From: Scytonematopsis contorta HA4267-MV1
Lineage (GTDB): Bacteria > Cyanobacteriota > Cyanobacteriia > Cyanobacteriales > Nostocaceae
Length of the DNA stretch: 64,000 nucleotides
NCBI GenBank assembly: GCA_019359035.1
Contig: JAHHIC010000051.1
Location: forward strand, 94,146 to 158,145
Reading direction: 5' to 3'
Part shown: positions 3,320-40,620 of the stretch, one piece after another
How the letters are laid out: each line of letters begins with the position of its first letter
Numbering within the stretch: the stretch's first letter is position 1
Made by a program: the position numbers and the translations under genes
The notes under the pieces: model-generated
Told to the model about the DNA's origin: nothing
What the model saw: the letters and a program-made list of their open reading frames with translations, nothing else
Database searches by the model: none

Positions 3320-3324
3320 AATAT

Positions 3325-4981: not shown

Positions 4982-5392
4982 ATGGACGAACAGTATCAAG
5001 TTAGCACACAAAATCTGAATGAGAACACCGTAATCACTGATTCTGATAGGAATTTTCATGCTCACAGTAACAATTCGATTTGGATTGCAGCAACTATTGC
5101 AGAAGATATTCATTCGCTAGCTAACAATCGTCATCAAATTGCATCCCAATGGTTTCGAGAGCGCTCTCGACAAGCTCAACTCAGTTTTAATGTTGCTGTC
5201 GGTTTGGCTGGAGCAACTACTATATTGAGTCTTACATTTGCTGTATCGGTTTGTATGAACAAAATTTCTGAAGCCACAGCAGCCGCAGGTTTGGGTTTGA
5301 CATCAGGTGCAGTTAGCGCGTATTGCTTTAAATTGTCGGATGACGCAAATAAAAGACTGGATGCAGCCGCAAAAGAACTTTTAGAAGAATAG
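4982..5392 (+). CDS. TRADD-N-associated two-transmembrane domain protein (cyanobacterial family)
   Basis: A strong RBS, AGGAGGGG, precedes the ATG. The motif RQAQLSFNVAVGLAGATTILSLTFAV is followed by a second hydrophobic helix. This matches the family's characteristic R-x-A-x-x-S-F pattern and 2TM layout. Confidence 0.7.
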   Translation: MDEQYQVSTQNLNENTVITDSDRNFHAHSNNSIWIAATIAEDIHSLANNRHQIASQWFRERSRQAQLSFNVAVGLAGATTILSLTFAVSVCMNKISEATAAAGLGLTSGAVSAYCFKLSDDANKRLDAAAKELLEE

Positions 5393-5867
5393 AAAACAGT
5401 TAGCGCATAAAGTTATTATTCAAATGTTAATAAAATTGGGGATGCATTTACAAACCTATTCCCAAAGTACAATATAGGGGGTGTACAGCCCTGGACACAT
5501 ATTAATATGGCTGATTTTAAAGAAGTTGTCCAACGCCAAACCTCATGTGATAGTAAGACAACTACATCCTCATACCCAACAGGAAGGGGTATTTATCTGA
5601 GTGACAGCAGTCGATTACAGTTATCTCCACAACTGATTAAATCAAACGGTAATATTAAACTACAAAATAATTATTTAAGGGAAAATAAATTTGGTGATAC
5701 ACAAGCATCACCAATAAGGTATCTTCCTTGAAATACCTATACTGCATTCTCTATTCGTAAAGCATAACGATTCTTGGACTACTTTTCTTGTAGTTCCTGA
5801 CTCCAAAAGTTCTGGGACAATTTTTCTTGCTGCTATACAACCACAATCGGTTGGAACTACTCAGAAA

Positions 5868-7168: not shown

Positions 7169-7329
7169 TAGTTTAGTTACATAAACTTGGTAAAACCATC
7201 TTTATTTACGGCTAATAATCCTATGCAAGGCATATGCGATGCTACTAATAGTTACACACAAGTGATTCTTATCGTAAACTAAAAGTAGCATATATTATGG
7301 AAACTAAGCTATACAGGAAAGAAATTATC

Positions 7330-25700: not shown

Positions 25701-28567
25701 TGTCCTTTAGGATTGTGGGTGATGACCGTTGGTTGAAAATCTAGCTGGCTTTGTAATGCACTTATCACTTCAATTTTAGTATCAGGTTCTGCCCATAAGC
25801 TAAAAATGTTACGTTGTAATTTCTGTGCGGCTTTGATAACATCTACTAGTGCTTCATTATTATCGCCTGCATCATGCCTTTGTACAGATTGGCTACTTAA
25901 TTGCCGTAGTTCTGCATCATTTCTGCGAATTTCGCTAATCCCCGCAAAAAACGAAACCACCAGCAAACCCATAACCAAGCTAAAAATAGTTAAATTGCGT
26001 CTAAATTTCTGCTGATGTTGTTGTTTATTTCTTTGTGTGATACTTTTTTTAATAAAATCACACTCTTTGTCAGTTAATTCCTCACCCCGTTGCTTGTACC
26101 AGTCCTCAGCGACTGAAAGTGCGGTTCCCTGCAATAATGAATCTGGATTTTGATTATTTTTCTCCCATTCTCGCTCATCTTGCTTTAATCTTTCTTGCCA
26201 AACTCTAAACTCGCGGTTATTTTCTATCCATTTGCGAAAAGTTCCCCATTCCCGAATTAATGCTTCGTGGACAATTTCTACTGTTTCCACTTTATTAATA
26301 TCATCTCTCCCCGTCACCACCAAACGCTTGTCGGCTAACTTTTGCACCAAGTCCCAATTTTTATCTCCTACATCCTGACGAGTTGCTACCCGTCGGGTGT
26401 CTTCTGTTCCTGCTCCTGGACTTACTAGCTGGATAAATATTTGTTCTGCTTTATATCTGTTATCTAAATCCTGCAATTGCAAAGCATCTAAAACTTCATC
26501 AGCATGTTTCGCTAAAGCTTTTTCTAAACCCCCTATTTCGTCATAAGCTTGGTGAGTTAAATACCAATTTTCTTGCTTCTCCCACAACTGCGTTAAAGCA
26601 AATTCTAACAGAGGTAAACGTCCGGGATGACTACCCAAATCATCGATTAACTTATTGGTTAAACCTGACTGCAATTCTACCTTCATTTTCAGAGCGGGTT
26701 TTTCAATCGCATCCCGTAACTCTTCCCTTTCCATTGGTGTGAGCAATAAAGGTGTATGCTCTTGCAAAGCTTTACCCAACAGGGAATTTAAGACTATTCC
26801 CAAAAAATCTGCTCTTAAAGTTAGCACTAAGGTAAAATTTTGTGCGTATTTAATTGTGAAATATAAAGCCTTTAGAAAACTCTGACGTTCTGTTTCTGGA
26901 GTGAGGGTGTAAAGTTCTTCAAATTGGTCAGCGACTAATACTAAACGTTGATATTTTGAAGAGGAAATTAAAGTTTGAATAACATCGCATAATTTTGTCT
27001 CATCATCGTGCCAATCTAACTCTAAATCTATTTGCGCTAATCTATTATCATTAATTTTTGACCTAACTTTTCTATGCTGTAATATTGACTTGTCAGAAAT
27101 ATCGCTTAAAGCCACAGCTAAGTTATCAAAAGGTTTATTTTCCGGACGAAAACTGACTATCCCGATATTACCGACATTTCGCAACTTTGGAAGCAACCCT
27201 GCAAACACAACGCTAGATTTACCGCTCCCAGAAGCACCGATGACAGCAACTAAGGGTTGATTATTTACCGCTTCTCGCAAACTAGCAATAAATTTTTCTC
27301 GACCAAAATAAAAAGCAGCGTCTTCTTCCCGAAATGCAGACAAACCACGATAGGGGTTATCGGGAAGTTCTCCTGTTAACCCTCCCAAATCCGACCAAGT
27401 TGGTGGAGCTTCGGTTGTATTTTGACAGATGACTGGTAACCAGGTTATCCCCGGTAGCTGGTTTTGCAAGTCTTGTTCATCTGCGAGTTCCAATAACTTA
27501 TCTCTGGCTTCCCCTACGGAAGTAAATAAAGATTTACCGCTTGCAAAAGAACTTAAAAAATATCCAATGAACTTTTGAGCAATGATATCTGGTACAACTT
27601 CACGCCAAACAATAATGTAACCTAAATTTAATTCCGCTAAATCTCTGGCTAAACCCAAACCATCGCAGGAATTGAATATCGCTAGCTTTAACCCATTAGC
27701 TATTGCTGCACTGAGTGTTTTTTTGATATCCGTTAAGCTGAGGGAATCCCGTGGGTTAATGTTGATGACTCCAGTTTGGGTATCGTTTTGGATATCGTTT
27801 TGGGTTTCACTATGCCCTGCAAAAAACAGGATATCACAAGGTTCTTCCCAAAGCATGTTAAAGTCCGCACGACTGGGTTCTGTGAGGGAAATTAATTCTG
27901 TTCCTCGTTTCTTCAATTTTTGCAGTAACTCTTTGTCTGTGTGAGTATCGATACCTTGACTATTGCCAAAAATACTGATGATTCTGGCTCTCCTAATTTT
28001 CTTAGCGGATTCATCTGTAGTCAGCTTGTTTGTAGTAGATTCATCTTTAGATACAAGAGTTTTAGCTGTGTGATAGTTAAAACAAAGAGCAGCTTCTTTT
28101 GTATAATTTTGAGATGGTAAATCTTCAGTAAAAAAATCCCATTCGTGCCAAGGTAGACGGTGTAAAATATCTTTTGTTGCGGAGGATGTCACTTTTTGTG
28201 TGTGGATTATCAAACGAATTTCTGAATCGGGGTACTGCCGCAATACTGACGATAATTTAGACTTGAGAGGCTGCAACCACTGATGCATTTGATGGCGTAA
28301 ATTCAGTGCTTCGTTGCGACAATCTCTTTCGGAAATATGAGTTACTTGGTTATTGGTAAAACCGCGTCGAGCATTCTTTGATAGTAAAGCATAATACTGG
28401 TATTTCCAATGTTCGTAGGAAAGAGGAATTTCAGTATTAGGAGATAACTGGGCTGACAACTGCGCGATTTTATTTGGTAAGGTCACAAATGTAACCGCAA
28501 ACTTATTTTTATCAAACCCGCTCTCAAAATTACCATCACCGAACTCTAAGTTTACAAATATTTCCAT
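22718..28567 (-). CDS. 1949-aa multidomain NLR-like protein. Domains in order: N-terminal domain of unknown function, CHAT (caspase-like) domain, STAND/NB-ARC-like NTPase, predicted TM helix, then about 25 WD40 repeats.
   Basis: The CHAT His/Cys dyad context is ILFFAGHSE...LAIFNSCDGLG. The NTPase region contains PYRGLSAFREEDAAFYFGRE and the P-loop VIGASGSGKSS. A hydrophobic segment, LTIFSLVMGLLVVSFFAGISEI, may be a TM helix. Many GH...WD units are present, and the repeats are highly similar at the DNA level. Confidence 0.85.
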   Translation of the reverse strand: MEIFVNLEFGDGNFESGFDKNKFAVTFVTLPNKIAQLSAQLSPNTEIPLSYEHWKYQYYALLSKNARRGFTNNQVTHISERDCRNEALNLRHQMHQWLQPLKSKLSSVLRQYPDSEIRLIIHTQKVTSSATKDILHRLPWHEWDFFTEDLPSQNYTKEAALCFNYHTAKTLVSKDESTTNKLTTDESAKKIRRARIISIFGNSQGIDTHTDKELLQKLKKRGTELISLTEPSRADFNMLWEEPCDILFFAGHSETQNDIQNDTQTGVININPRDSLSLTDIKKTLSAAIANGLKLAIFNSCDGLGLARDLAELNLGYIIVWREVVPDIIAQKFIGYFLSSFASGKSLFTSVGEARDKLLELADEQDLQNQLPGITWLPVICQNTTEAPPTWSDLGGLTGELPDNPYRGLSAFREEDAAFYFGREKFIASLREAVNNQPLVAVIGASGSGKSSVVFAGLLPKLRNVGNIGIVSFRPENKPFDNLAVALSDISDKSILQHRKVRSKINDNRLAQIDLELDWHDDETKLCDVIQTLISSSKYQRLVLVADQFEELYTLTPETERQSFLKALYFTIKYAQNFTLVLTLRADFLGIVLNSLLGKALQEHTPLLLTPMEREELRDAIEKPALKMKVELQSGLTNKLIDDLGSHPGRLPLLEFALTQLWEKQENWYLTHQAYDEIGGLEKALAKHADEVLDALQLQDLDNRYKAEQIFIQLVSPGAGTEDTRRVATRQDVGDKNWDLVQKLADKRLVVTGRDDINKVETVEIVHEALIREWGTFRKWIENNREFRVWQERLKQDEREWEKNNQNPDSLLQGTALSVAEDWYKQRGEELTDKECDFIKKSITQRNKQQHQQKFRRNLTIFSLVMGLLVVSFFAGISEIRRNDAELRQLSSQSVQRHDAGDNNEALVDVIKAAQKLQRNIFSLWAEPDTKIEVISALQSQLDFQPTVITHNPKGHTGDRYGSGVNDVIVSRDCKTLASVGEKALKLWDVATGTNIHTYTGQFYNAIFSNDGKTLASASYDNTVKLWDVATGTSIYTLKGHTGRVLSVLFSNDGKTLASASYDKTVKLWDVATGTSIYTLKGHKDSVSSVIFSNDGKTLASVSDGKIVKLWDVATGNSIKTLKGHTGRVNSVIFSNDGKTLASLSDDKTVKLWDVATGNSIKTLKGHAGRVNRVIFSNDDKTLASASDDKTVKLWDVATGNSIKTFEGHTSSVTSVIFSNDSKTLASVSDDKTVKLWDATTGASIKTLEGRTGIVTSVIFSSDGKTLASVSDNNTVKLWDAATGISVKTLKVSTDRVTSVIFSNDGKTLASVSDSNTIKLWDAATGNSIKTLKGDTDRVTSVIFSNDGKTFASAIDDNTVKLWDVATGNSNKTLKVSTESVNSVIFSNDSKNLASASDDKTVKLWDVATGNSIKTFKGHTGGVNSVIFSKDGETLASASDDKTVKLWDVATGNSIKTLKGHTGRVSNVIFSNDGKTLASASTDRTVKLWDAATGALIKTFQGHTSKVNSVIFSNDGKTLASVSNDKMVKLWDTTTGNSIKTLRRPSSVKNLSFLTDGKIIRFVSNGDTVRLWDINSGQVSTIASLEASFDYLLDVSISPNSKQIASASSDNTVKLWKRSFQGTPVTLEGHTAEVLSVSFSPNNKILASASSDATIKLWDTSKVKEIKTLKGHSASVNSVRFSPNGEIIASASDDKTVKLWDAKIGKVIKTLERHTNWVNSVSFSPDGKTIASASSDGTVIFWDVAKGSYIKEHKEEATRQTNTDAIDDLSDILDSFEPFNTNENKPPAINSVSFSPDGKTLAFATNDRVVKILDVNSNKILFATPKKHEAKVNSVNFSPDGKIIVSASDSTKNTIGEKQSLNNIKLWDAATGREIITLGKVSDSINSVSFSSDGKTIVSPSNDGTYIVWNFDLDDLLKRGCDQLQRDLHNLKEIDRSNVTDKDRLLCKN

Positions 28568-30463: not shown

Positions 30464-30730
30464 ATGAATATCTCCTTGAATCCGGAATTAGAGCAATTTA
30501 TCCAAAGTCAAGTTGCAAATGGTAACTACAATTCAACTGAAGAGGTTATTATTGCGGGTATTAAATTGCTAGAGGAAAGGGAAAGTATTTATAAGGGTCG
30601 GTTTGAAGAACTGCGACAAGAAATCATGGTAGGGGTAAAACAGCTTGAACGTGGAGAACGGCTTGACGGTAAAGAAGTAATTGAAAAACTACGTCAAAAA
30701 AATCAAGCAACGAGAAAGGCTGAGGCGTAA
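30464..30730 (+). CDS. parD: ParD-family type II antitoxin
   Basis: The N-terminal MNISLNPELEQFIQSQVANGNYNSTEEVIIAGIKLLEERE is ParD/RHH-like. Confidence 0.8.
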   Translation: MNISLNPELEQFIQSQVANGNYNSTEEVIIAGIKLLEERESIYKGRFEELRQEIMVGVKQLERGERLDGKEVIEKLRQKNQATRKAEA

Positions 30731-30737
30731 TATATTA

Positions 30738-31031
30738 ATGAGCATCTACTTTGTATCGCCTGAAGCAGCTCAAGACTTGCAAGAAATTAATGATTACCTG
30801 TTCGCGAAAAACCCAGATATCGCCAACAAGTTTTTGGATACTATGATTCAAAAGTTTGAGATATTAGCAAATTTTCCTAATATGGGACGTAGACGTGATG
30901 AACTTTCAACAGCTCTGCGTAGCTTTCCAGTGGATGATTATCTAATTTTTTATCAGCAATTTGAAGAAGGAATTGAAATTGTCCGTGTAGTTAGTGGTTA
31001 TCGCGATTTGAATGCGCTTTTTGATGAATAG
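30738..31031 (+). CDS. parE: ParE/RelE-family type II toxin. The start is moved to the ATG after the parD stop.
   Basis: MSIYFVSPEAAQDLQEINDYL...EIVRVVSGYRDL is ParE-like. It abuts parD. Confidence 0.8.
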   Translation: MSIYFVSPEAAQDLQEINDYLFAKNPDIANKFLDTMIQKFEILANFPNMGRRRDELSTALRSFPVDDYLIFYQQFEEGIEIVRVVSGYRDLNALFDE

Positions 31032-31207: not shown

Positions 31208-32794
31208 TTATTTCGAGTTATTAATACTAATTAAATCGCTCAAAATACTGTCCAAGCTGCCATTGACTTGAATTTTATCAATTTTTTCGGCAATTCGTTC
31301 CAACACTTCGAGTTCTTTCAACCGCAATGCAATAGGATTATCTTCCATGACTTTAGCGGTGTTGAGCATACTACGAGTTGCAGCAGTTTCTTCACGACGT
31401 CTAACTACGTTAGCTTGAGCAGCTTTTTCCGCTTCGACTACTTTACTCAAGATAGTTTTTATCTCACCTGGTAAGATAATATCTTTAACTCCCACAGAAG
31501 CTACTTCAATTCCATAGTCTGCTGTTTTAGAACGAATGTAGTCAGAAATACTCGTGTCAACAGCACCTTTATCTTCAAGTAACGCATCAAGAGTCTTTTC
31601 ACCAACAGCCCCACGTAATGCAAACTGTAATTCTTTGTACAAGAAGCTACTTGCATCTGACAAAGTATTTTTTGCTCGTAGTGGTTCGACGATACGATAA
31701 CCTGCTGTCAAGTTTAATCGCAAAGGCACCTTATCTTTGGAAAGGATATCTTGACCAGATACTTCCATTGTTTGTTGACGCAAGTCAAAAACTTCCGTTT
31801 GAAAAGACCGTCCAAATATCCACCAAGCGTGAATTCCTGGTCGCAGTTCAGATTGGTACTCTTGGTTAATATATAGTAGACCGATATGCTGTGCTTTAAC
31901 TTCACAAAGATGCAAACTCTTGCAAGCAAGATAAGTTACTTCTGGTAAACCAGAGTTTAATTCAGCTACTAAGCGAGGTGGTAACTTAGCATCGGTGCTG
32001 ATATCTATAACTTCCACTTCTACACCTTGCCAAAATAGCTTGCGACTAGATGGCGCTAATATAGAAATGGCTTTACCTTCATATCGCACAATAGCTACTT
32101 GAGTATTCAGTAATTGCACGACTACACAATAAGCAGCAATAAAGTCGGGATGTCTTTGAATTAATACATCTTCGAGTGGAAAATCTGGATTTGGTATGAT
32201 TCGGTTAAGAGTACGAACAGTTACCTCTCTATCAAAAGTCCAAAATGCATATTCACCTGGTTCCAAAGGTCGAACAAAGTTATTTTGCACATACAGTAAA
32301 CCAACCTCAGACTCGGAAATTCGGAATTTTTTAATTCCATTTAAAGTAAGACTGCACGTTTGTAGACGAAACTCAGATGGCAACTCTAAGCTTTCTTCCA
32401 AGTTAAAGATATGCGCTTCCACTTCAATAAAACCACGCCAAAATGCACGTAGTTGATTTGGTGCAACGCTTACCCAGTTTTGACCATAATGTACCAAAGC
32501 TGCTTGATTAAATGCAGTTCTAACGATTACTAAGTAATCTACCAACTCCGAACTGTGGTTTCGCAGCAATAATTCTAAGTTTTCAATCTTTGCTTCTGGC
32601 ACGTTAAGGTCATAGGTTTTAACTTGCCAGTGTCTACCAAAGTAAGTATAAGTACCGGGTTGCAATATTTTCTTAAAATCGCTTCGATGATACAAAATTC
32701 CAAATTCGTTAGGTTTGATATAAAAGGTTTTCCACATAATAATATTGATAGATAATTCGGGCATTTTTACCCAGTCCAGATTAAATAAAGCCAT
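31208..32794 (-). CDS. SPFH/band-7 (slipin-like) domain protein with a large N-terminal extension
   Basis: The C-terminal region VASVGVKDIILPGEIKTILSKVVEAEKAAQANVVRRREETAA is characteristic of stomatin/prohibitin-type SPFH domains. Confidence 0.65.
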   Translation of the reverse strand: MALFNLDWVKMPELSINIIMWKTFYIKPNEFGILYHRSDFKKILQPGTYTYFGRHWQVKTYDLNVPEAKIENLELLLRNHSSELVDYLVIVRTAFNQAALVHYGQNWVSVAPNQLRAFWRGFIEVEAHIFNLEESLELPSEFRLQTCSLTLNGIKKFRISESEVGLLYVQNNFVRPLEPGEYAFWTFDREVTVRTLNRIIPNPDFPLEDVLIQRHPDFIAAYCVVVQLLNTQVAIVRYEGKAISILAPSSRKLFWQGVEVEVIDISTDAKLPPRLVAELNSGLPEVTYLACKSLHLCEVKAQHIGLLYINQEYQSELRPGIHAWWIFGRSFQTEVFDLRQQTMEVSGQDILSKDKVPLRLNLTAGYRIVEPLRAKNTLSDASSFLYKELQFALRGAVGEKTLDALLEDKGAVDTSISDYIRSKTADYGIEVASVGVKDIILPGEIKTILSKVVEAEKAAQANVVRRREETAATRSMLNTAKVMEDNPIALRLKELEVLERIAEKIDKIQVNGSLDSILSDLISINNSK

Positions 32795-33217
32795 AATTTA
32801 TAGTTTTGTAGTATACATACTACACGAGAAATATTATAAACTCTGCAAGTGCAAGCGTCTACAATTAAGATGCGGACGGATAGATATTTTTCGACTGGAT
32901 TAAGATTGCTGTAACTAAACTACCTTTCGGTTCGTCAAAGCAACAGCGCTCAAATATGCCGTTCAGTTTGTTGACTCTAAAATTCTATAAAGAATCTTGA
33001 TGTGACAAACGAAGGACATACTCAAGTCAGAAAAAATCTAAACGCACAGGCTCCTTCGCTGTTGTATTAACGCTCATCATTTCTGACAAACGAAAACACG
33101 CACCAGCACCACAGAGTTTTGAGTTTTTAAGGTAACGGAATTGAACCGTTTCAGGATTTCTCCTTCACCATTTTTCTGCTACTTCCCACAAGTAGTGTCT
33201 TTTGACCCGGACAGGGT

Positions 33218-33291
33218 TGGTAAAAGTATAGGAATCGAACCTATTACCAATCGGTTAACTGCCGACCGCTCTTCCAGTGAGCTAACTTTTT
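33218..33291 (-). tRNA. tRNA-Asn(GUU)-like gene. It has an unusual all-A/U acceptor stem and may be a pseudogene.
   Basis: Reverse-complement read: acceptor AAAAAGT, D-arm GCTC-ACTGGAA-GAGC, anticodon arm GTCGG-CAGTTAA-CCGAT with anticodon GTT, T-arm ATAGG-TTCGATT-CCTAT, then ACTTTTA-CCA. The 1:72 pair is A/A. Confidence 0.5.
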
Positions 33292-33292
33292 T

Positions 33293-33365
33293 TGGTGTAT
33301 GATGAAGGACTCGAACCTTCGTCCAGCCGATTTTTCGGATGCTCTGCCAACTGAGCTAATCACAC
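33293..33365 (-). ncRNA. Anticodon-less tRNA-like element with alanine-type acceptor features (G3:U70, A73, encoded CCA)
   Basis: Reverse-complement read: acceptor GTGTGAT/ATCATAC including a G3:U70 wobble; D-arm GCTC-AGTTGGCA-GAGC; T-arm GAAGG-TTCGAGT-CCTTC; then A-CCA. The anticodon arm is replaced by a 15-nt segment with a short CCGA-AAAA-TCGG hairpin. Confidence 0.45.
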
Positions 33366-33559
33366 GATGGGACAGTTTCACTGCGCTGTTCGGCATACGC
33401 ACAATTTAATCATCTTGGCGCACCAGTTGGGTATACTGAACCCAAACTATAGATTCGCTTGTGTATTACTGTCTTACTACATAACGTAACACACGATATG
33501 TAAAGCGTCAACCTTCCTAATATATTGTTTATTTTCCAGGGAATAATAAGTTCAAGAAA

Positions 33560-34640
33560 GGGCGTAATTGTATACACCCTCGTTGGTAAGCTAATTGGGT
33601 AAAGTACTAAACAGCAGCATTTTTCCTCACAGTTTCCACGTCTAATTCCAAGGACTCGGCAATTTGCTCAATGCTTAACCCTAACTTAAGTAGCTTGGGA
33701 ATGGTTTTCAACTTGATACCAAGCGCACCTTCTTCTCGTCCTTCTTCTCGTCCTTCTTCTCGTCCTTCTTCCTTACCTTGCAAGTAAACCTTGCTTTTTC
33801 TCAGCGACTCTAATTCAAGCATAACTTCTAACTCCTCCATGCTCAGGTTTGGAAATTTGTCCATCACTACCGTTTGAATAAATTCTAAGACTTTTTCTTG
33901 CAAAACGGCGTTGCTTACTTCCGATTTTGTTTGCTTTATCAACTGTCGAGCAAATTCTCCTGTTTGATTTTTTCTCTTTTTCTCGACAACTAAGCGCATG
34001 ATTCCTACTCCAAGGGATTGATTGGGAGTCTTTCCTAGTTCGTCTAAATAAAACCGACGTAAAGCTGGTAAGAATATCTTTAAATATGGGGGAAATCTTC
34101 CTTCGCTGCTGCGTTTATCATAAATGACAATAGCGTACCATTCCTCGTTGGTTGGGTCATATTGGGTCAAATAAAGTATTATCTTGCCAAAAAAGCTTTT
34201 GTAGAAGTTTTTATCTTTGTAAGCCTGTGCTTCAATGAAATAAATTGGGTCAAAGCTATATCCAGGACGAGTTGAAAGCAAACCATCTAGACGAAAACCT
34301 TGTTGCTTTACTTCCGGAGCGCTGTATTGATAAGCGCTCTTGCTATGATGTGGTTTATCTATGAGTTCAAAGAATAATTCTGGTATGTCTTTGAAAATTT
34401 TATAAAAAAGTGGGTCGGCTGTCATTCGCTTTTTGCTTACTTTTACAGTAATGCGGTAGATATCATCAGTACGATATCACTAGTAATTTTTATTTTTTCT
34501 TGATGATATATAAATATTTACAGTAACAATATTAGTCAATATCTCAGTGATAAATAAAACAGATAATCTTGTATTTATCAGTACTATTTAAAATTCAACG
34601 ATAGTAAGAACTAAGAACCTAACCTCTAAAACTAATCAAT
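33560..34640 (-). mobile_element. Rpn-family element copy 1 of ~1.1 kb (gene plus conserved flanks)
   Basis: Nucleotide similarity to the 39500-40620 copy extends about 40 bp past the stop and about 200 bp upstream of the start. Confidence 0.6.
33607..34425 (-). CDS. Rpn/YhgA-like PD-(D/E)XK putative transposase (copy 1) with a C-terminal (EGRE)n repeat
   Basis: The N-terminal MTADPLFYKIFKDIPELFFELI matches the conserved start of this family. There are four 12-nt repeats encoding EEGR. It is about 90% identical to the 39550-40404 paralog. Confidence 0.65.
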   Translation of the reverse strand: MTADPLFYKIFKDIPELFFELIDKPHHSKSAYQYSAPEVKQQGFRLDGLLSTRPGYSFDPIYFIEAQAYKDKNFYKSFFGKIILYLTQYDPTNEEWYAIVIYDKRSSEGRFPPYLKIFLPALRRFYLDELGKTPNQSLGVGIMRLVVEKKRKNQTGEFARQLIKQTKSEVSNAVLQEKVLEFIQTVVMDKFPNLSMEELEVMLELESLRKSKVYLQGKEEGREEGREEGREEGALGIKLKTIPKLLKLGLSIEQIAESLELDVETVRKNAAV

Positions 34641-34913: not shown

Positions 34914-35630
34914 ATGAAAAAAATTTTAATATTATTAGCCAACCCTCAAAACACAGATAAACTACGGTTAGACCAAGAAGTACGAGGAATTCAAGATTCC
35001 CTACAACGGTCTAAAAATAGAGAACAGTTTGAAATAGTTACAGAATGGGCAGTACAAGTTGATGACCTGCGTCGTGCTTTATTGACTTACCAACCGACTA
35101 TTGTTCACTTCTCTGGACATGGGTCACAGGGTCAAGGTTTAGTCTTGGAAAATAACTTGGGACAAATGCAGGTAATAAGCACAGAATCTCTAGCCCGCTT
35201 ATTTAAATTATTTCAAAATCATGTTGAGTGCGTTTTACTTAATGCTTGCTATAGTGAAGACCAAGCCGAAGCAATTCATCAACATATTGATTATGTAATA
35301 GGAATGAATCGAGCGATAGGAGATAAAGCCGCAATTGAATTTGCTGTAGGATTTTATGATGCGCTGGGTGCGGGTAGAACATATGAGGATTGTTTTGAAG
35401 TAGGCTGTGCATCTGTTGATTTAAAAGGAATTCCGGAGTCACAAACCCCAGCAATCAAAGCTAGAAAGCGTTCTTCCTCTGAAACTAGGACAAATAAAGA
35501 AAACACAACACCAGTAGAACCAGTAAATAGTGAACCAGTAAATAGTGGTTCAATCACACAGACAGCCGGTGATAATGCAATTCTGTTTGGAAACATTACA
35601 CAGGCAGGTAATTTGAATATTCAAAAATAG
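34914..35630 (+). CDS. stand-alone CHAT/caspase-like domain protein
   Basis: A His/Cys dyad lies in conserved contexts: TIVHFSGHGSQGQG and ECVLLNACYSEDQAEAI. The N-terminal LILLANPQNTDKLRLDQEVRGIQDSLQRS is typical of cyanobacterial CHAT-like N-domains. Confidence 0.75.
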   Translation: MKKILILLANPQNTDKLRLDQEVRGIQDSLQRSKNREQFEIVTEWAVQVDDLRRALLTYQPTIVHFSGHGSQGQGLVLENNLGQMQVISTESLARLFKLFQNHVECVLLNACYSEDQAEAIHQHIDYVIGMNRAIGDKAAIEFAVGFYDALGAGRTYEDCFEVGCASVDLKGIPESQTPAIKARKRSSSETRTNKENTTPVEPVNSEPVNSGSITQTAGDNAILFGNITQAGNLNIQK

Positions 35631-35639
35631 GAGCAAGCT

Positions 35640-38291
35640 ATGACCAGCACAATTTCTCAATCAGCTGGCAATAATGCGATTTTGTTCGGAAGCATTGGAC
35701 AAGTAGGAACTATTAATATTCTCAAGCTTGATTCTGAGCTAGGCAATAAGGTAATGCTTTCGACCTCTCTGGAAAGCCAGCAATTTCCCAAACCTCGTCC
35801 CCTTCCCGTTCTCTTACCTCCTCGTCCATTTCCTTTATTACTGGGTCGTCGTGAAGAAGTCAAAGTAGCCGTTGATGCTTTACCATACGACCAATCAGTA
35901 GAGTTCTATGGTTCTCCAGGTATGGGTAAGTCAGTCATTCTAAGATATCTGGCTCATCATCCATCGATTACTCCCGCTTTTAATGATGGTATTATTTACC
36001 ATCAGTGTGTCAAACATCAATCGATATCTGATTTACTACAAATTCTTTTTAACGCTTTCCATGATTGTGGAACTTCCTTTAAGCTTACAGATATTCAAAT
36101 TCGTGAAGCTCTCAAAAATAAAAAAGCTTTGGTTTTGTTAAATAATGTAAAGCTAACAAGAGAAGAAGTACAAATTTTAATCAATGTCTTACCCAGCTTT
36201 ACTTTTCTTTTTGCTTCCCAAGAGCGTCAACTTTGGGGTGAGGGACATCCCATCAAGTTGGGAGGGTTGCCTTTAAATGATGCTGTGTCTTTGCTTACCA
36301 GAGACATAGGACATCCTTTGAACGTAGAAGAACACTCTGCTGCTGAAGCACTGTGTAAAGCTTTGGATGGTCATCCCCTGCAAATTCTTCAGGCTTCTGC
36401 ATTGGTAAAAGAGGAAAATATTTCTTTAGTTGTTTTTGCTCAACAAATTAATACGACCGCTTCCAGTAGCTCTGGGAATGAGCGCTTGTTAAAGTCATTA
36501 ACAAAAGCTCAGCGGATGATTTTGGTTTTACTTGCTGCTTTTGGGGCAAATATTGCTTTAGGAGCGGAATTAATTGGTGATTTGACTGAAATCCCTCAGA
36601 TTAAACCAATTTTAGAGACATTATTACGACGCAATTTAGTACAGGTAGATGAAGAACGTTTTAATATTGCAAGTTCCCTAGTTGAGGAGTTATGTCAGAA
36701 AGAAAACATCACAGCCTTTATGGAAAAGTCTGTGAGCTACTTTACAAATTGGGTACAAAAAAATCAGGGTATTTCAGGAAATTTAACTTCACAATCGGAA
36801 GCGATATCAGAAGCAATAATTAAAGTATTAGAATGGTCATTTGAGCTTAGTAGATTTTCTGATGTCATAACTTTAGGAAAGTCTATAGAGAAAGGATTAG
36901 CTCTGAGTGGAGAATGGGATAGATGGAATAAAGTGTTGCAATGGGTACTTGAAGCAGCACGTGCAACTGGAAATCAAGCGATTGAAGCTTTTGCTTTGCA
37001 TCAATTGGGTACTCGTTCTCTTTGTTTAAATGAGGTGATTGAAGCTCAGAGTTATTTAAACCAAGCTCTCCATATTAGACAGCTATTAAATGACCAATCA
37101 GGGATAGAAGTAACTAGTCATAATCTCCAGTTTCTTTTAAATCCACCTTTACTGCCGCTATTGGAGCCTGAATCTGAGTCGGTAAGTCATGTAGACGAAA
37201 ATGTTGCAGACAACAAAAACCACCCACTATTGATGAAACTGGGTGTTGCTGCTCTATTGTTAGGGTTAGGGGGAATATTATTACCCGTATTTCTAAAACC
37301 TGCGACTCTTCCCCCAATTGAAACTACTCCCTCAAATGAAACACCTACCCCAATTGAAACTACTCCCTCAAATGAAACACCTACCCCAATTGAAACTACT
37401 CCCTCAAATGAAACACCTAAACCAATTGAAACTACTCCCTCAAATGAAACACCTACCCCAATTGAAACTACTCCCTCAAATGAAACACCTACCCCAATTG
37501 AAACTACTCCCTCAAATGAAACACCTAAACCAGTTGAAACTACTCCCTCAAATGAAACACCTACCCCAACTGTAGAGTCCAAGCTTATCTCTTTAGTTCT
37601 GGAACCCAACGAAAATGTAAGTAAGGGTACAAGAATACGAGGAAAAGTCACTATTGATAACCCTGCTCCTGCTGATGGCATTACAATTAAACTTACAAGT
37701 AGCAATAAATCTATTGCTCGCGTACAAGAAAAAGTAAGAATTCTAGCAGGGGAAGTTGAAGCAAACTTTGGTTTTGTAATTCCTAAAGAAAGCAGCGATA
37801 ACCCTAATGATGAATCTGTAGAAATTTCAGCTTCATATCAAGAAAAAGTTAAAACAGCAACAATAACCCTACTTCCACAAAAGACGGAAGAAGCAGAACT
37901 AATTTCTTTATCGCTAGATAAAAAGCTTGTAGGTTGGGGTGAAAAATTAGTGTTAACAGTGACTCTCAGCAATCCTGCACCAAATGATGGTATCGTCATT
38001 AATTTAGAAAGCGATAAACCATATCTTGCTCCCGTAGAAGCGAGCGTGAAAATTTCAGCTGGTGAAAAGCAAGCAACCTCAGAGTTCTCAACACCAAAAG
38101 ATGGTGATAATTTTCCAGACGGAGCCAACATAAAAATTACAGCATCTTATAGAGAAGTATCCAAAGTTGAATCATTCCAGATAATACCTTACCGCAGGAC
38201 AGGTACTTCAGTTTTAAAACCAAACGCGACCCGAAGATTCATAACCCCTTATCGGCTGGACTTACAGAAAAAACCTCCCAAACTTAATTAA
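35640..38291 (+). CDS. Membrane-anchored STAND (NB-ARC-like) NTPase. Domains in order: NTPase, winged helix, TM helix, eight 12-aa Thr/Pro-rich repeats, then two Ig-like beta-sandwich domains.
   Basis: An AGGAG RBS precedes the ATG. The P-loop reads FYGSPGMGKSVIL, Walker B reads KALVLLNNV, and a GLPL-type motif appears as KLGGLPLNDAV. The TM segment is LMKLGVAALLLGLGGILLPVFL. The (PIETTPSNETPT)x8 block is encoded by perfect 36-bp DNA repeats at 37313-37566. Two homologous ~100-aa modules follow: ...NPAPADGITIKLTSSNK... and ...NPAPNDGIVINLESDKP... Confidence 0.8.
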   Translation: MTSTISQSAGNNAILFGSIGQVGTINILKLDSELGNKVMLSTSLESQQFPKPRPLPVLLPPRPFPLLLGRREEVKVAVDALPYDQSVEFYGSPGMGKSVILRYLAHHPSITPAFNDGIIYHQCVKHQSISDLLQILFNAFHDCGTSFKLTDIQIREALKNKKALVLLNNVKLTREEVQILINVLPSFTFLFASQERQLWGEGHPIKLGGLPLNDAVSLLTRDIGHPLNVEEHSAAEALCKALDGHPLQILQASALVKEENISLVVFAQQINTTASSSSGNERLLKSLTKAQRMILVLLAAFGANIALGAELIGDLTEIPQIKPILETLLRRNLVQVDEERFNIASSLVEELCQKENITAFMEKSVSYFTNWVQKNQGISGNLTSQSEAISEAIIKVLEWSFELSRFSDVITLGKSIEKGLALSGEWDRWNKVLQWVLEAARATGNQAIEAFALHQLGTRSLCLNEVIEAQSYLNQALHIRQLLNDQSGIEVTSHNLQFLLNPPLLPLLEPESESVSHVDENVADNKNHPLLMKLGVAALLLGLGGILLPVFLKPATLPPIETTPSNETPTPIETTPSNETPTPIETTPSNETPKPIETTPSNETPTPIETTPSNETPTPIETTPSNETPKPVETTPSNETPTPTVESKLISLVLEPNENVSKGTRIRGKVTIDNPAPADGITIKLTSSNKSIARVQEKVRILAGEVEANFGFVIPKESSDNPNDESVEISASYQEKVKTATITLLPQKTEEAELISLSLDKKLVGWGEKLVLTVTLSNPAPNDGIVINLESDKPYLAPVEASVKISAGEKQATSEFSTPKDGDNFPDGANIKITASYREVSKVESFQIIPYRRTGTSVLKPNATRRFITPYRLDLQKKPPKLN
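37313..37566 (+). repeat. 7x36-bp near-perfect in-frame tandem repeat inside the STAND gene
   Basis: The unit CCCAATTGAAACTACTCCCTCAAATGAAACACCTAC is repeated with only a few substitutions (C/A, A/G). Confidence 0.9.
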
Positions 38292-38354: not shown

Positions 38355-39377
38355 TTAACCGGACATGATATAAGGCGCCAAAGCTAAATTTTTCGTGCTA
38401 TCACTAAGTAGAACGCTGTCACACAGGTTAAGCAGTTCAAGTTCCGTAGAGGTTTGTCGCATCTGCCGCAGAAAATGACCTTCAGCGTCAACCAAAAGGG
38501 CTATATAATTAAGGAACATTTTCAGGTAGCCTACACGCGACCGTGCTGGCATAGTTGCTGAGTTAGGGGTTTGCCATAAACGGTCAATATATTTTCGTAC
38601 CTCAACTAAAGGAACAGGTGTGATTGTCTCAGACCGCAAAGCCTGCCGAATTTGATTAAAAATCCAAGGATTTGCTATTGCCCAGCGTCCCACCATCACA
38701 CCAGCCGCACCTGTTTGCGAAAGCACTTCTATTGCTGTTGTGGCAGAGTTGATATTACCATTAGCAAGCACTGGGCAATCGACCCATCTAACTGCTTCGG
38801 CAATCAAATCATATTTCACTGCTCCGTGATACATATCTTTTACCGTGCGACCGTGCAAACTCAGCAAATCAATATTGTGACGATTAATAATATCTAAAAT
38901 TTTGTAAAAGTTATCTGTATTTTCAAAACCTACGCGCATCTTAACGGTCAAAGGTCTATCATTCACCGCAGAACGCAGTTCTCCCAAAATCCTATCAACT
39001 TTTTCGGGTTCTCGCAGTAATCCACCCCCAACATTTTTGCGATAAACTCTAGGTGCTGGACAGCCCATGTTAAAGTCAACCCCAGCTATATTATACTGAC
39101 AGAGTTCCTGTGCTGTTCTTACTAAGTCTGGAATGCTTTCGCCAATCATTTGAGCAAAAACGGGTTGGCCTGTGTCGTTTTCGGTGATTGACGCCAAAAT
39201 GCTACGATTGAGTCGTGAGGTATCATTCACGCGGAAATATTCGGTGAAAAAATAGTCAGGACAGCCGTATTGGGCAATCACCTTCATAAACCAGAGGTTT
39301 GTTACGTCCTGCATAGGAGCAAGAGCAGTCAGGGGTAGGTCTGGATTTCGGGATTGGGGGAGCAATACATGGGACAT
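38355..39377 (-). CDS. dus: tRNA-dihydrouridine synthase (Dus family)
   Basis: LAPMQDVTN and the NMGCP active-site Cys motif are present. The TIM-barrel FMN-binding segments are apparent. Confidence 0.85.
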   Translation of the reverse strand: MSHVLLPQSRNPDLPLTALAPMQDVTNLWFMKVIAQYGCPDYFFTEYFRVNDTSRLNRSILASITENDTGQPVFAQMIGESIPDLVRTAQELCQYNIAGVDFNMGCPAPRVYRKNVGGGLLREPEKVDRILGELRSAVNDRPLTVKMRVGFENTDNFYKILDIINRHNIDLLSLHGRTVKDMYHGAVKYDLIAEAVRWVDCPVLANGNINSATTAIEVLSQTGAAGVMVGRWAIANPWIFNQIRQALRSETITPVPLVEVRKYIDRLWQTPNSATMPARSRVGYLKMFLNYIALLVDAEGHFLRQMRQTSTELELLNLCDSVLLSDSTKNLALAPYIMSG

Positions 39378-39499: not shown

Positions 39500-40620
39500 C
39501 AAGGACATAATTCTATATGCCCTCGTACATAAGCTAATTTGGTAAAATGCTAAACAGCAGCATTTTCCCTCACAGTTTCCACATCTAATTCCAAAGACTC
39601 AGCAACTTGCTCAATGCTTAACCCTAACTTAAGTAGCTTGGGAATGGTTTTTAACTTGTTATCAAGCGCACCCTCCCTAAATCCTTCTTCTCGTCCCTCC
39701 TGTCGTCCCTCTTGTCGTCCTTCTTGTCGTCCTTCTTGTCGTCCTTCTTGCTTACCTTCTAAGTAAACCTTGCTTTTTTTCAGCGACTCTAATTCAAGCA
39801 TAACTTCTAGCTCCTCCATGCTTAGATTGGGAAATTTGTCCATCACCACCGTTTGAATAAATTCTAAGACTTTTTCCTGTAAAACGGCATTACTGACTTC
39901 CGATTTTGTTTGCTGTATTAACTGTCGAGCGAATTCTCCAGTTTTATTTTTCCTTTTTTTATCGACGACTAAGCGCATGATTCCCACACCAAGAGATTGA
40001 TTGGTAGTTTTTCCTAGTTCGTCTAAATAAAACCGACGTAAAGCTGGTAAGAATATCTTTAAATACGGGGGAAATCTTCCTTCGCTGCTGCGTTTGTCGT
40101 AAATGACGACAGCATACCATTCCTCGTTGGTTGGGTCATATTGGGTCAAATAAAGTATTATTTTACCAAAAAAGCTTTTGTAGAAGTTCTTATCTTTATA
40201 AGATTGCGCTTCAATGAAATAAATTGGTTTAAAGCTGTATCCGGAGCGAGTTGAAAGTAACCCATCTAGACGAAAACCTTGTTGTTTGACTTCCGGAGCG
40301 CTATATTGATAAGCACTCTTGCTGTGATGTGGTTGACCTATAAGTTCAAAGAATAATTCTGGTATGTCTTTGAAGATTTTATAAAAAAGTGGGTCGGCTG
40401 TCATTCACTTTTGCTCTTTTTTGCGGTAATGTAGTAGATTCAATTAGTAAAATATCATTATAAAAATTGATTTTTTTTGATAATATATAAATATTTACAC
40501 TAACAAGATAAACCAAAATTTAGGTAATAAATAAAACGGACAACATGGTATTTATTAGTACCTATTTAAAACTCAACCATAGTCATAACTAATAACCTAA
40601 CCCCTAACTGATATCTTGTA
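39500..40620 (-). mobile_element. Rpn-family element copy 2
   Basis: In direct orientation with copy 1. The two copies bracket about 4.9 kb. Confidence 0.6.
39550..40404 (-). CDS. Rpn/YhgA-like PD-(D/E)XK putative transposase (copy 2) with a longer (QEGR)n repeat
   Basis: Paralog of the 33607-34425 gene. The N-terminus is identical and the 12-nt repeat copy number differs. Confidence 0.65.
   Translation of the reverse strand: MTADPLFYKIFKDIPELFFELIGQPHHSKSAYQYSAPEVKQQGFRLDGLLSTRSGYSFKPIYFIEAQSYKDKNFYKSFFGKIILYLTQYDPTNEEWYAVVIYDKRSSEGRFPPYLKIFLPALRRFYLDELGKTTNQSLGVGIMRLVVDKKRKNKTGEFARQLIQQTKSEVSNAVLQEKVLEFIQTVVMDKFPNLSMEELEVMLELESLKKSKVYLEGKQEGRQEGRQEGRQEGRQEGREEGFREGALDNKLKTIPKLLKLGLSIEQVAESLELDVETVRENAAV

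Follow-up and report, generated by a model that had tools for sequence, protein, structure and literature searches.

A pair of odd tRNA genes in Scytonematopsis contorta as probable non-decoding, tRNA-shaped modules of a conserved cyanobacterial non-coding RNA unit preceding a slipin gene

The locus described here lies in a stretch of 64,000 nucleotides of Scytonematopsis contorta HA4267-MV1, which was analysed as a whole and is called the 64-kb window below. It contains a conserved non-coding unit of about 740 nt on the minus strand, matched by a profile of 30 homologous units (E 4.8e-182); the same profile finds a single copy in the window. The unit consists of a promoter region, a 5' leader, the tRNA-like modules e1 and e2, a remnant of a module e3, a 3' structured domain and the promoter of the downstream gene, in this order. 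The two odd tRNA genes described in the initial annotation are the modules e1 and e2 inside this unit and not isolated genes. The features of the locus are as follows.

32778..33516, minus strand: the whole conserved non-coding unit
33462..33493, minus strand: putative promoter P1, with the extended -10-like element TGTGTTACGTT (33493-33483) followed by TrcR-box-like repeats
33481-33474 and 33471-33462, minus strand: the TrcR-box-like repeats of P1, TGTAGTAA and CAGTAATACA, respectively
33366..33461, minus strand: 5' leader, with the hairpin GGGT-tcagtat-ACCC and the blocks CTGGTGCG and GCGTATGCCG
33293..33365, minus strand: e1, tRNA-like, with a 4-nt loop replacing the anticodon loop, G3:U70, A73 and CCA (ARAGORN, Rfam, covariation)
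33218..33291, minus strand: e2, tRNA-like, called tRNA-Asn(GUU), with a 6-bp acceptor and A1:A72 mismatch, A33 and a CCA-like 3' end (ARAGORN, Rfam, covariation)
33125..33217, minus strand: trailer, hairpin and e3 remnant, with the ultra-conserved block AACCCTGTCCGGGTCAAAAGACACTAC
33163-33154, minus strand: e3 mini-hairpin GGA-GAAA-TCC (GNRA-type)
33150-33134, minus strand: e3 T arm AACGG-TTCAATT-CCGTT
32839..33118, minus strand: multi-helix 3' structured domain of 280 nt, closed by the long-range helix AACTCTGTGGTGCTGGTG / CGCTTGCACTTGCAGAGTT
32807..32861, minus strand: slipin promoter P2, TAGACG-17-TATAAT at 32861-32833 (promoter scan 10/12)
32824-32817 and 32807-32814: inverted pair of perfect TrcR boxes TGTAGTAT, downstream of the P2 -10 element
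31208..32794, minus strand: slipin/SPFH (Band 7) gene, 528 aa (Pfam Band_7, E 9e-31)

The unit is carried by 19 distinct loci in Nostocales, Chroococcidiopsis, Fischerella and Oscillatoria (four orders), and the homology spans about 620-740 nt in the loci L002-L029 and L032. With a pattern of 20 specified bases from the trailer block, 20 homologous loci and one chance match were retrieved. In Anabaena PCC 7120, the unit is situated between alr0738 and alr0739-alr0740. Rfam 15 holds no family for it, and only the tRNA model matches there. It is not described in Brenes-Alvarez 2016 (text and supplements), in the 2017 survey of cyanobacterial tRNAs or in the 202-genome survey of RNA structures, and it is likewise absent from the retron surveys and from the eLife paper on conflict systems. 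BLAST comparison of the window region and the PCC 7120 unit with plasmid and phage collections gave only generic tRNA similarity (tRNA-Lys-like T arms of Bacillus/Priestia; phage tRNA-Met and tRNA-Asn), and a pattern scan of viral contigs gave no match to the unit. A plasmid- or phage-borne array was therefore rejected.

Two tRNA genes are called by ARAGORN in the 64 kb, and one remnant is present in addition. The call at 33293-33365(-) is 'tRNA-???' with a 2-nt anticodon, and that at 33219-33291(-) is tRNA-Asn(gtt); the two elements are separated by the single A at 33292, in agreement with the one-nucleotide spacing noted initially. Against the Rfam tRNA model (RF00005, gathering score 29), e1 scores 52.2 bits (E 2.4e-8 over the whole 64-kb window) and e2 46.7 bits (E 8.3e-7 over the same window), so that both are tRNA matches far beyond chance.

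Direct reading of the sequence confirmed that e1 is an anticodon-less tRNA-like element with intact D and T arms, the discriminator A73 and an encoded CCA. Its acceptor GTGTGAT/ATCATAC is fully paired, with G1:C72, U2:A71 and G3:U70. The anticodon arm is shrunk to CCGA-AAAA-TCGG, a mini-hairpin of 12 nt rather than the 15 nt first given. Because this short hairpin is found in at least ten distinct homologues, and because the stem and the cloverleaf show compensatory changes, the view is supported that e1 is a retained anticodon-less element of tRNA shape and not a recently broken gene. The e1 loops vary from 4 to 7 nt, with 11 different ones. At the orthologous position in L012, L013, L014, L016 and L020, an intact CAU arm GATCGA-CTCATAA-TCGAT is present. 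The module is mostly lost in PCC 7120, Fischerella (L029) and L023, and is therefore dispensable in some lineages.

The combination of G3:U70 with A73 and CCA had been taken as the alanine identity set. It does not extend to the family as a whole. G3:U70 is confined to the clade of the window (the window, L002, L003, L021 and L022), and among 15 aligned e1 sequences the 3:70 pair is G:U in 4 and U:A in 11. The discriminator varies between A, C, G and U across the family (C73 in L021 and L022), only about 60% of the family have the terminal A of CCA, and the 2:71 pair is U:A, not G:C. These features of the window e1 are best regarded as a clade-specific state and not as a family function.

The description of e2 as a tRNA-Asn(GUU)-like gene with an AAAAAGT/ACTTTTA acceptor and an A1:A72 clash is borne out by the sequence and by ARAGORN. 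The acceptor is not strictly all A/U, as had been stated, because pair 6:67 is G:C. A further defect, absent from the earlier description, is found in the loop CAGTTAA, where position 33 is A; U33 is near-universal in tRNA anticodon loops. It is replaced by A in the window and by G in L003, and it is lost too in type B units. The 5-bp anticodon stem, the 7-nt loop length and A37 are all retained in e2. The 1:72 position is unpaired in 17 of the 19 e2 homologues. Eleven different loops occur among these 19 sequences, with CAU in six of them, and even close relatives carry different anticodons: GUU in the window, UUU in L003 and L022, and CUU in L002. A G:U pair at 3:70 appears sporadically (3/19), and in L002 a 22-nt insertion is located inside the T loop.

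It is important to compare the pairing of these modules among the homologues. The e1 cloverleaf is 96.8% paired in 15 homologues, with 6 pairs showing compensatory change, and the e2 cloverleaf is 95.0% paired in 19 homologues, with 5 such pairs; none of 500 shuffles of e2 reached the observed pairing or covariation score. Compensatory changes are present in all four stems (acceptor, D, anticodon and T), which are about 95-97% paired, and in Oscillatoria the D stem of e1 is fully flipped (GAGC..GCTC). In the conservation profile, the D stem, T loop and acceptor score 0.94-1.0, in contrast to a majority fraction of 0.42 at anticodon position 34 of e2, and the variation is piled up in the anticodon loop and not evenly spread. 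This shows, at the level of the alignment, that selection has kept the cloverleaf with its acceptor, D, anticodon and T stems, the D/T-loop elbow and the mismatched 1:72 of e2. The well-paired stems with compensatory changes, together with freely varying loops, mean that e1 and e2 are probably kept for shape and not for decoding.

The intact CAU anticodon arms of some relatives show, judged by homology, that the modules descend from tandem tRNA(CAU) genes. The suggestion of a decaying tRNA array was thus right about the origin from tRNA genes and wrong about neutral decay, which is contradicted by the conservation and covariation. For the same reason, the relatives with an intact arm at the e1 position, anticipated in the initial annotation as the mark of a simple deletion pseudogene, do exist, but that conclusion does not follow from them.

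The other parts of the unit are also conserved. The further T-arm-like fragment reported near 33150 is real; it lies on the minus strand as the T arm of e3 and is conserved in relatives. This arm and the mini-hairpin are kept in the clade of the window (L001, L003, L021, L022) and in L002, L006, L012, L020 and L032A, and the T stem shows a compensatory change, ACGG/CCGT against ATGG/CCAT in L002. In most loci, e3 is a mere remnant. For the helix closing the 3' domain, pairing over 21 sequences is 95.5%, with compensatory change at 4 pairs, and it falls to 24-43% with a slid partner. In the RNAalifold consensus of this domain, compensatory changes occur at 19 of the 59 pairs. The idea that this domain encodes a small protein, starting at the ATG in CTTGAGTATGTCC, was rejected because a 1-nt insertion in PCC 7120 breaks the frame and the alignment indels are not multiples of three. 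In the 5' leader, the blocks are conserved in the alignments, and the pairings are an unscored reading of the alignment by eye. A pairing between the block GCGTATRCCG of the leader and the 3' block CGGCATAT was dropped as inconsistent across sequences.

The slipin gene is located downstream of the unit in 13 of the retrieved loci and in L026-L029 and L032, and nearly always among the 19; the protein of the window is 90% identical to its orthologue in L003. The flanking genes scanned were DUF2887, SPFH, ParDE, CHAT, NB-ARC and Dus. Adjacency to the Rpn-family (DUF2887/Rpn-like) and Dus genes had seemed notable initially, but already the closest relative does not share it; it is the slipin gene, downstream, that has a conserved place beside the unit. 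A search for proteins identical to the DUF2887 neighbour gave no match.

Both promoter regions contain sequences resembling the binding site of TrcR, for which the consensus box is TGTAGTAT (PMC10272220). Only three perfect matches to this box occur in the 64 kb, and two of them form the inverted pair at P2; the orthologous place upstream of alr0739 in PCC 7120 reads GTGTAGTATGTGTAGTAT. At P1, the repeat TGTAGTAA matches the published consensus in 7 of 8 positions, and TGTGCTAnATT and AGTAATACA are conserved alignment columns. The upstream box is weak in PCC 7120. From these sequences we infer that P1 acts as a promoter and binds TrcR. The site AAGACA-18-TATAGT at 33475-33446, given by the promoter scan, may be an alternative P1.

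Known members of the TrcR translational-stress set are the tRNA L-array, RtcB and a small number of protein genes. TrcR binds a fragment of the alr0739 promoter in vitro, and deletion of trcR raises alr0739 72-fold and alr0740, the slipin orthologue, 42-fold (PMC10272220). In a published microarray of PCC 7120, the probe alr0738_igFwd has a log2FC of -2.41, in a comparison confounded by erythromycin and with the probe position taken from its label. The same list includes rtcB, the tRNA L-array, all8564, alr0739, alr0740 and asr0855. The orthologous intergenic strand is thus shown, in one array experiment, to change together with rtcB, the L-array and alr0739/alr0740.

These observations allow us to propose, with a probability of roughly 0.6, that neither of the two odd tRNAs decodes and that both are tRNA-shaped modules of a non-coding RNA unit, about 740 nt long and conserved in cyanobacteria, upstream of slipin. 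When translation is inhibited, repression by TrcR would be lifted and the unit would be transcribed from the promoter with TrcR-like boxes. The tRNA shapes could then be recognised and cut by RNase P at their 5' sides and by RNase Z or RNase E at their 3' sides. Such cleavage would free CCA-ended tRNA mimics of about 73 nt and would give the downstream structured RNA a defined 5' end, at AACCCUGUCC. Unable to decode, the mimics would most plausibly serve as decoys or ligands for tRNA-binding stress factors. Both the cleavage by RNase P/Z and the proposed role as decoys are derived from general knowledge of tRNA-like elements. RNase P requires only the acceptor/T-arm half, so that processing alone leaves the anticodon stem and the 7-nt loop length of e2 unexplained. 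The unit might also be a long 5' leader and not a separate RNA.

If this proposal is correct, the unit adds an RNA component to the TrcR translational-stress regulon, and the alr0738-alr0739 spacer of Anabaena PCC 7120 becomes a genetically tractable object for the role of non-decoding tRNA mimics under ribosome inhibition.

A possible, though improbable, alternative is that the unit is the partner RNA (template, primer or recognition) of a type XIII-like retron reverse transcriptase (RT), with slipin and YdeI as associated proteins and with the window as an RT-less remnant or its RT encoded elsewhere. One RT family does adjoin the unit in 6 of the 19 distinct loci (L007/L015; L013 and L009; the L014/L016/L010/L024 group; L020; L028; L032). 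Its members are 55-60% identical, score 492-666 bits with PADLOC RT_XIII and carry NAxxH and VTG motifs. The layout unit-RT-unit-slipin occurs in Oscillatoria and in the L016 group, two further RT homologues share their organism name with a slipin homologue, and the long-range helix closing the 3' domain, in which no branching G was assigned, resembles the a1/a2 pairing of retrons. However, tblastn finds no RT in the 64-kb window, and the unit is equally conserved in PCC 7120, L003, L004, L006 and L029, where no RT stands beside it. In L028 and L007 it is downstream of the RT, while known retrons have their non-coding RNA upstream, and the canonical long type XIII RT loci L030 and L034 have neither the unit nor a tRNA-like gene. 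The unit stands before slipin or YdeI in just the way that it stands before the RT, as expected of a leader or promoter module that they share. A neutral explanation, in which remnants of a tRNA array decay beside the slipin promoter and are conserved only through the close kinship of the genomes, is disfavoured and very improbable. An ancestral CAU form exists, in L023, L029 and PCC 7120 e1 has decayed to a minihelix or further, most loci have only a remnant of e3, and the T loop of e2 is interrupted in L002. Yet the unit is common to Nostocales, Chroococcidiopsidales and Oscillatoriales, the stems of its modules are paired to 95-97%, compensating double changes are seen in the acceptor, anticodon and T stems, one D stem is fully flipped, variation is concentrated in the anticodon loop, and the region is transcribed and regulated according to the PCC 7120 microarray.

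Two other explanations assign a charged state to one of the modules, and little credence is given to either. For the clade of the window only, e1 could be an anticodon-less mimic alanylated by AlaRS, similar to an alanine minihelix or the tmRNA domain. AlaRS recognises mainly G3:U70, in minihelices too, and the window, L002 and L003 have this pair together with G1:C72, A73 and an encoded CCA; the step from U3:A70 to G3:U70 needs changes on both strands, and G:U persists in all five distinct clade sequences. Opposed to this are the U3:A70 pair of 11 of the 15 e1 homologues, C73 in L021 and L022 of the same clade, the U:A pair at 2:71 and the sporadic 3:70 G:U pairs of e2, which are expected from single-step drift. 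Features of tmRNA are also missing, since the window has no ARAGORN tmRNA call and no Rfam tmRNA match even at E<=5. The modules could instead be functional spare tRNAs induced by stress, equivalent to the trn L-array of Anabaena but with two genes, in which e2 decodes Asn codons and e1 is a dead copy. For e2, the 5-bp anticodon stem, the 7-nt loop, A37 and the CCA-like end are kept, and since the anticodon is recognised by the synthetases for Asn, Ile, Lys, Met and Arg, a change of anticodon could redirect charging. In the same regulon, 23 of 26 L-array tRNAs are aminoacylated in vivo (PMC8421152). Against decoding by e2 stand its changing anticodon among close relatives (11 loops in 19 sequences), the loss of U33 in the window, L003 and type B units, the mismatched 1:72 in 17/19 and an acceptor with a single G:C pair. 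Its discriminator is also not G73, which is the Asn identity in E. coli.

A more speculative and rather doubtful extension of the reading as non-decoding modules is that the unit belongs to a class of large cyanobacterial non-coding RNA not described before, with tRNA mimics joined to a structured domain of 280 nt, and is a translation-stress RNA partner of a domesticated, vertically inherited retron-type RT, or that e2 is a decoy for tRNA-targeting toxins. In the former case, the tRNA-like CCA end or the structured domain would be the primer or template, slipin and YdeI would be associated proteins, and the RT-less genomes, including the window, would keep the RNA for an RT-independent part of its function. 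The toxin-decoy form would build on the CAU ancestry of e2 and its conserved 1:72 mismatch, as in initiator tRNA.

The non-decoding modules and the unit around them resemble several known systems in part. In the type XIII retrons (Mx162/Mx65 group), as here, a long-range helix and an RT of clade-10 type are involved: the helix encloses the 3' domain and the clade-10-like RT adjoins the unit in the six loci. Known type XIII systems have WH-SWIM and HEAT/ARM genes and a short non-coding RNA upstream of the RT, while the unit loci are without such genes, and the unit is 650-740 nt long, can follow the RT and persists without an adjacent one. An intact CAU loop as a correlate of RT presence was rejected: Oscillatoria PCC 7112 has the RT and yet an e2 loop CTATTAA and a 4-nt e1 loop, and L011, which lacks the RT, keeps CAU. 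Through the repeated adjacency of the RT, a retron lineage becomes open to study that seems to be inherited vertically and may have been domesticated.

The L-array of PCC 7120 shares with the unit tRNA-type genes with encoded CCA, change in the same single array experiment and nearby TGTAGTAT boxes. It differs in having 26 plasmid genes (arrays reach 43), most of them chargeable and with proper anticodons, whereas the 2-3 modules of the unit are chromosomal, have anticodons that drift or are missing, are joined to a 280-nt domain and are tied to slipin. It has been proposed that the L-array tRNAs have non-canonical roles, for example as sponges for toxin RNases (PMC8421152, PMC10272220). YrlA, the bacterial Y RNA encoded beside rsr and rtcB, is similarly a mimic of the acceptor, D and T arms with a reduced anticodon arm inside a larger non-coding RNA, with a link to an RtcB-containing stress response. 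The arm order of the unit is not permuted, no Ro-binding stem is recognised, and the Rfam YrlA model (RF02553, gathering score 69) gives 19.2 bits and E = 1 for the window element. In common with the tmRNA domain and alanine minihelices, the window e1 has no anticodon and carries G3:U70, A73 and CCA, and a link to ribosome stalling is plausible; the unit has no tag reading frame or pseudoknot architecture, and G3:U70 is absent from most family members. The mascRNA at the MALAT1 3' end and tRNA punctuation use a tRNA shape as an RNase P/Z signal setting the ends of neighbouring RNA, a mechanism that may hold for the unit. They are eukaryotic or organellar, and the conserved anticodon stem of e2 exceeds the needs of such a signal.

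With canonical decoding tRNAs, e1 and e2 have in common the cloverleaf and the conserved D/T-loop elbow (52.2 and 46.7 bits with Rfam). They differ from them in the 4-nt AAAA loop of e1 and, in e2, in A at position 33 instead of the required U33, in an anticodon unconserved among orthologues and in the missing elongator-type 1:72 pair in 17/19. If the modules are indeed non-decoding, gene callers give pieces of one conserved structured RNA the labels tRNA-Asn, Lys, Ile, Arg, Leu, Met or 'undetermined'; ARAGORN makes calls of this kind in Anabaena PCC 7120 and in other genomes.

Exactly two tRNA-type genes were found by ARAGORN in the whole 64-kb window, both on the minus strand:

33365-33293 (-), e1, undetermined tRNA with a two-base "anticodon"
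33291-33219 (-), e2, tRNA-Asn(gtt)

The Rfam tRNA model gives e1 52.2 bits and e2 46.7 bits (gathering score 29). As read from the sequence, e1 has the ends GUGUGAU..AUCAUAC-A-CCA with the pair G3:U70; it retains intact D and T arms, and only CCGA-AAAA-UCGG is left of the anticodon arm. A single A lies between e1 and e2. The acceptor of e2 has 6 bp, A/U-rich with one G:C pair, and an A1:A72 clash, and its loop is CAGUUAA, so that position 33 is A and not U. The initial annotation, which had described two odd tRNA genes here, is thus accurate save for small details, and the T-arm-like fragment that it placed near 33150 is present (AACGG-UUCAAUU-CCGUU, 33150-33134).

We consider, with a probability of about 0.85, that e1 and e2 do not decode and belong as modules to a larger functional RNA. 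A scan of reference genomes with the e1 acceptor fixed and the anticodon region free matched two loci, in Calothrix sp. CSU_2_0 (L002) and Dulcicalothrix desertica PCC 7102 (L003), where the likeness to the window reaches far past both tRNAs, upstream and downstream. The conserved block directly 3' of e2 (TGTCCGGNTNAAAAGACACTAC), used as a query, gave 20 more metagenome loci and one chance hit. Look-ups of slipin homologues brought in Anabaena PCC 7120 (L026), Chroococcidiopsis thermalis PCC 7203 (L028) and Fischerella, while a reverse transcriptase homologue brought in Oscillatoria nigro-viridis PCC 7112 (L032). The homologous stretch measures 620-740 nt in all loci found (nhmmer), and the window holds one copy of this unit (33516-32778, E 4.8e-182). 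Rfam 15 matched the unit with two tRNAs alone, nothing else appearing even at E<=5, and a literature search found no paper that describes it. tRNA mimics within larger RNAs are already known in the Y RNA YrlA, tmRNA and mascRNA; when tested for membership, the unit falls into none of these.

The region 3' of e2 begins with a near-invariant AACCCUGUCCGGGUCAAAAGACACUAC, followed by a hairpin. A third tRNA remnant, e3, comes next in a subset of loci including the window, with a GGGA-GAAA-UCCC-type mini-hairpin in place of the anticodon arm, plus a T arm. In the window it is followed by:

33118-32839 (-), 3' domain, 280 nt

This domain is closed by a 16-bp interrupted long-range helix, whose pairing reaches 95.5% across 21 sequences and includes four compensatory pairs. 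Of the 59 pairs in the RNAalifold consensus of the domain, 19 show compensatory changes. About 15 nt separate the end of the helix's 3' strand from paired TGTAGTAT boxes downstream, and 45 nt separate it from the start codon of the next gene. In some genomes, two units are present in tandem. A second, paralogous form, type B, has a different trailer (CCCTGGCCCTGGGTACGGGCACCTTGTT...) and lacks the long variable hairpin:

L016, 4660-5338, type B unit
L009, 1592-2279, type B unit
L010, 2928-3593, type B unit
L028 (Chroococcidiopsis), 2745-3478, type B unit
L032 (Oscillatoria), 5104-5723, type B unit

Most type B copies have a single tRNA-like module, called tRNA-Ile(tat) by ARAGORN, with the loop UGUAUCG, in which position 33 is G; the Chroococcidiopsis copy additionally retains an e1-like module. 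Directly upstream of the D. desertica unit (4700-4815) there are tandem 27-nt repeats (GGAGATGCTTCGTACCTCAGTATCACA), of which the window has none.

A pseudogene in a decaying tRNA array had been proposed as another possibility. Five homologous loci (L012, L013, L014, L016 and L020) indeed have e1 with a normal arm, GAUCGA-CUCAUAA-UCGAU (anticodon CAU), and e2 has the anticodon CAU in 6/19 sequences; the ancestors of the modules were therefore tandem tRNA(CAU) genes. An intact arm in relatives had been named in the initial annotation as the sign of a simple deletion pseudogene. The pairing and its compensatory changes nevertheless speak against simple decay. The e2 cloverleaf is 95.0% paired in 19 distinct sequences, versus 33-44% with the 3' partner slid, and compensatory changes occur at five pairs, among them 32:40 (A:U in 10, G:C in 9) and 51:65 (U:A in 12, C:G in 7); in 500 shuffles, neither the pairing nor the covariation score was ever as high as observed. 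Position 1:72 of e2 is unpaired in 17/19, so that the mismatch itself is a conserved feature. In e1 (15 sequences), 96.8% of the cloverleaf is paired and six pairs are compensatory, and in Oscillatoria the entire D stem is flipped (GAGC..GCUC). Conservation is 0.94-1.0 in D stems, T loops and acceptor strands and 0.42 at anticodon position 34. The 19 aligned e2 sequences have 11 different 7-nt loops, which read as anticodons include CAU, GAU, GUU, UUU, UCU, CAG, UAG, UCC and UAU; outside this alignment, L002 and Oscillatoria unit A add CUU and AUU. The e1 loop has 4 to 7 nt. Except in Chroococcidiopsis, the shortened e1 all share the stem UCCGA/UCGG (AUCGA/UCGAU in intact e1), and this common stem suggests one old shortening event followed by loop drift. 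Since e1 is further reduced in PCC 7120, Fischerella and L023, it is not indispensable.

Some individual copies deserve mention. About 22 extra nucleotides (TACCCTCCGGGAAGACTTCGTC) split the e2 T loop of Calothrix sp. CSU_2_0 (7205-7245), with acceptor and anticodon stems retained. On the reverse strand of L017, at about 2570-2760, an extra module is inserted between e2 and the trailer; it clearly comes from initiator tRNA-fMet (anticodon stem GGG/CCC), with AAU as the anticodon in its loop CTAATAA. A second copy of the trailer AACCTTGTCTAGGTCAAAAGACA accompanies it, and the small hairpin shows a C:G to U:A compensatory change. In PCC 7120, e2 (L026 2906-2980; chromosome, about 860.75 kb) is called tRNA-Asn(gtt) by ARAGORN, and any annotation of it as a housekeeping tRNA gene is probably wrong.

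Two further explanations should be compared with that of a larger functional RNA. It had been suggested that e1, with the alanine identity set, could be charged by AlaRS. Its G3:U70 pair is limited to the clade of the window (L001, the window's own locus, with L002, L003, L021 and L022), and the other 11 aligned e1 have U3:A70. Any of the four bases (A, C, G or U) can be the discriminator, just 60% have the final A of "CCA", and 2:71 is U:A; G:U at 3:70 also occurs in 3/19 e2. The family is therefore not selected for alanine identity. Within the clade of the window such an identity is possible, judging from the sequence, because the G:U pair needed changes on both strands and persisted.

The unit may alternatively be the partner RNA of a reverse transcriptase (RT), since an RT gene abuts it in 6/19 distinct loci, among them:

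L028, 1670-2713, RT gene
L007, 9787-11241 (-), RT gene
L016, 3606-4658, RT gene
L032, 4001-5065, RT gene

The layout is RT-unit-(YdeI)-slipin in L028 and L007/L015, and unit-RT-unit-slipin in the L016 group (L014/L016/L010/L024), L013+L009, L020 and Oscillatoria. These RTs share 55-60% mutual identity, score 492-666 bits with the PADLOC retron type XIII RT model, and have the retron NAxxH and VTG motifs. RT homologues are common in cyanobacteria; for several of them the longest contig is as long as that of a slipin homologue, and in two of these cases the organism names agree too. However, the loci with unit-adjoining RTs lack the WH-SWIM and HEAT/ARM genes that canonical type XIII retrons carry, no unit lies near the canonical long RTs of this type that have WGR/HEAT neighbours in Pseudanabaena and Rivularia, and the window has no RT. 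We therefore keep this explanation as a serious alternative for the family, though not for the present locus.

The conserved partner of the unit is the downstream slipin gene (SPFH/Band 7 membrane protein, 528 aa, 90% identity between the window and L003). A YdeI/OmdA gene lies between them in several loci, including PCC 7120, where the unit sits between alr0738 and alr0739 (YdeI)-alr0740 (slipin). Deletion of trcR, the gene of the translational-stress repressor, raises alr0739 72-fold and alr0740 42-fold, and TrcR binds the alr0739 promoter (PMC10272220). Both genes are induced by chloramphenicol along with the tRNA L-array and rtcB (PMC10272220; PMC8421152). TrcR boxes have the sequence TGTAGTAT and recur around the -10 box and start site (published TrcR work; PMC10272220). 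Two of only three perfect matches in the window form an inverted pair (32824-32807), which directly follows TATAAT and ends 13 nt short of the slipin ATG. Upstream of the unit, 33481-33462 contains a 7/8 match and then CAGTAATACA; the family as a whole conserves AGTAATACA in this place. In one dataset, the intergenic forward-strand probe "alr0738_igFwd" is the most strongly changed transcript (log2FC -2.41), tabulated beside rtcB, the L-array, all8564, alr0739, alr0740 and asr0855 (PMC9938897, Supplementary Table 2); the authors ascribe this gene set to the erythromycin used for plasmid maintenance. Expression of the unit thus co-varies with the TrcR set in that dataset. We take this as evidence, from a single experiment and with the probe position taken from its name, for transcription of the unit on the expected strand and for its increase along with the TrcR regulon.

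The unit is conserved and structured, keeps its tRNA shapes without anticodon constraint, and is genetically linked to slipin. Its transcription may be controlled by TrcR. RNase P and RNase Z/E could cut at the tRNA shapes, which would release tRNA mimics ending in CCA and leave the 3' domain with a defined 5' end; the mimics might act as a decoy or ligand for tRNA-binding factors of the stress response. We hold this processing-plus-mimic mechanism only tentatively. Retention of the e2 anticodon stem and loop length, with a 1:72 mismatch like that of initiator tRNA in a module of CAU ancestry, suggests that the whole L-shape is recognized and not merely the acceptor/T half.

The upstream neighbour of the unit varies among the loci compared:

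Window: DUF2887
Closest relative of the window: MerR regulator and short-chain dehydrogenase
PCC 7120: ABC permease
Fischerella: IleRS
Chroococcidiopsis: ParE (L028 1286-1576, beside the RT-unit-slipin locus) and reverse transcriptase

The adjacency to an Rpn-family element and Dus, which had been regarded as notable, is therefore incidental; neither DUF2887 nor Dus occurs near the unit in the homologous loci. The window has two DUF2887 paralogues (Rpn/PD-(D/E)XK-like) 5 kb apart, at 33607-34425 (-) and 39550-40404 (-). They flank the Dus gene (38355-39377) and, on the strand opposite the unit, the genes of a CHAT-domain protease (238 aa) and, after it, an NB-ARC/STAND NTPase (883 aa) at 34914-38291 (+), a pairing typical of cyanobacterial conflict systems. 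Directly downstream of the slipin gene there is a ParD/ParE toxin-antitoxin pair (30464-31031, +), and a very long open reading frame of 1949 aa occupies 22718-28567 (-).
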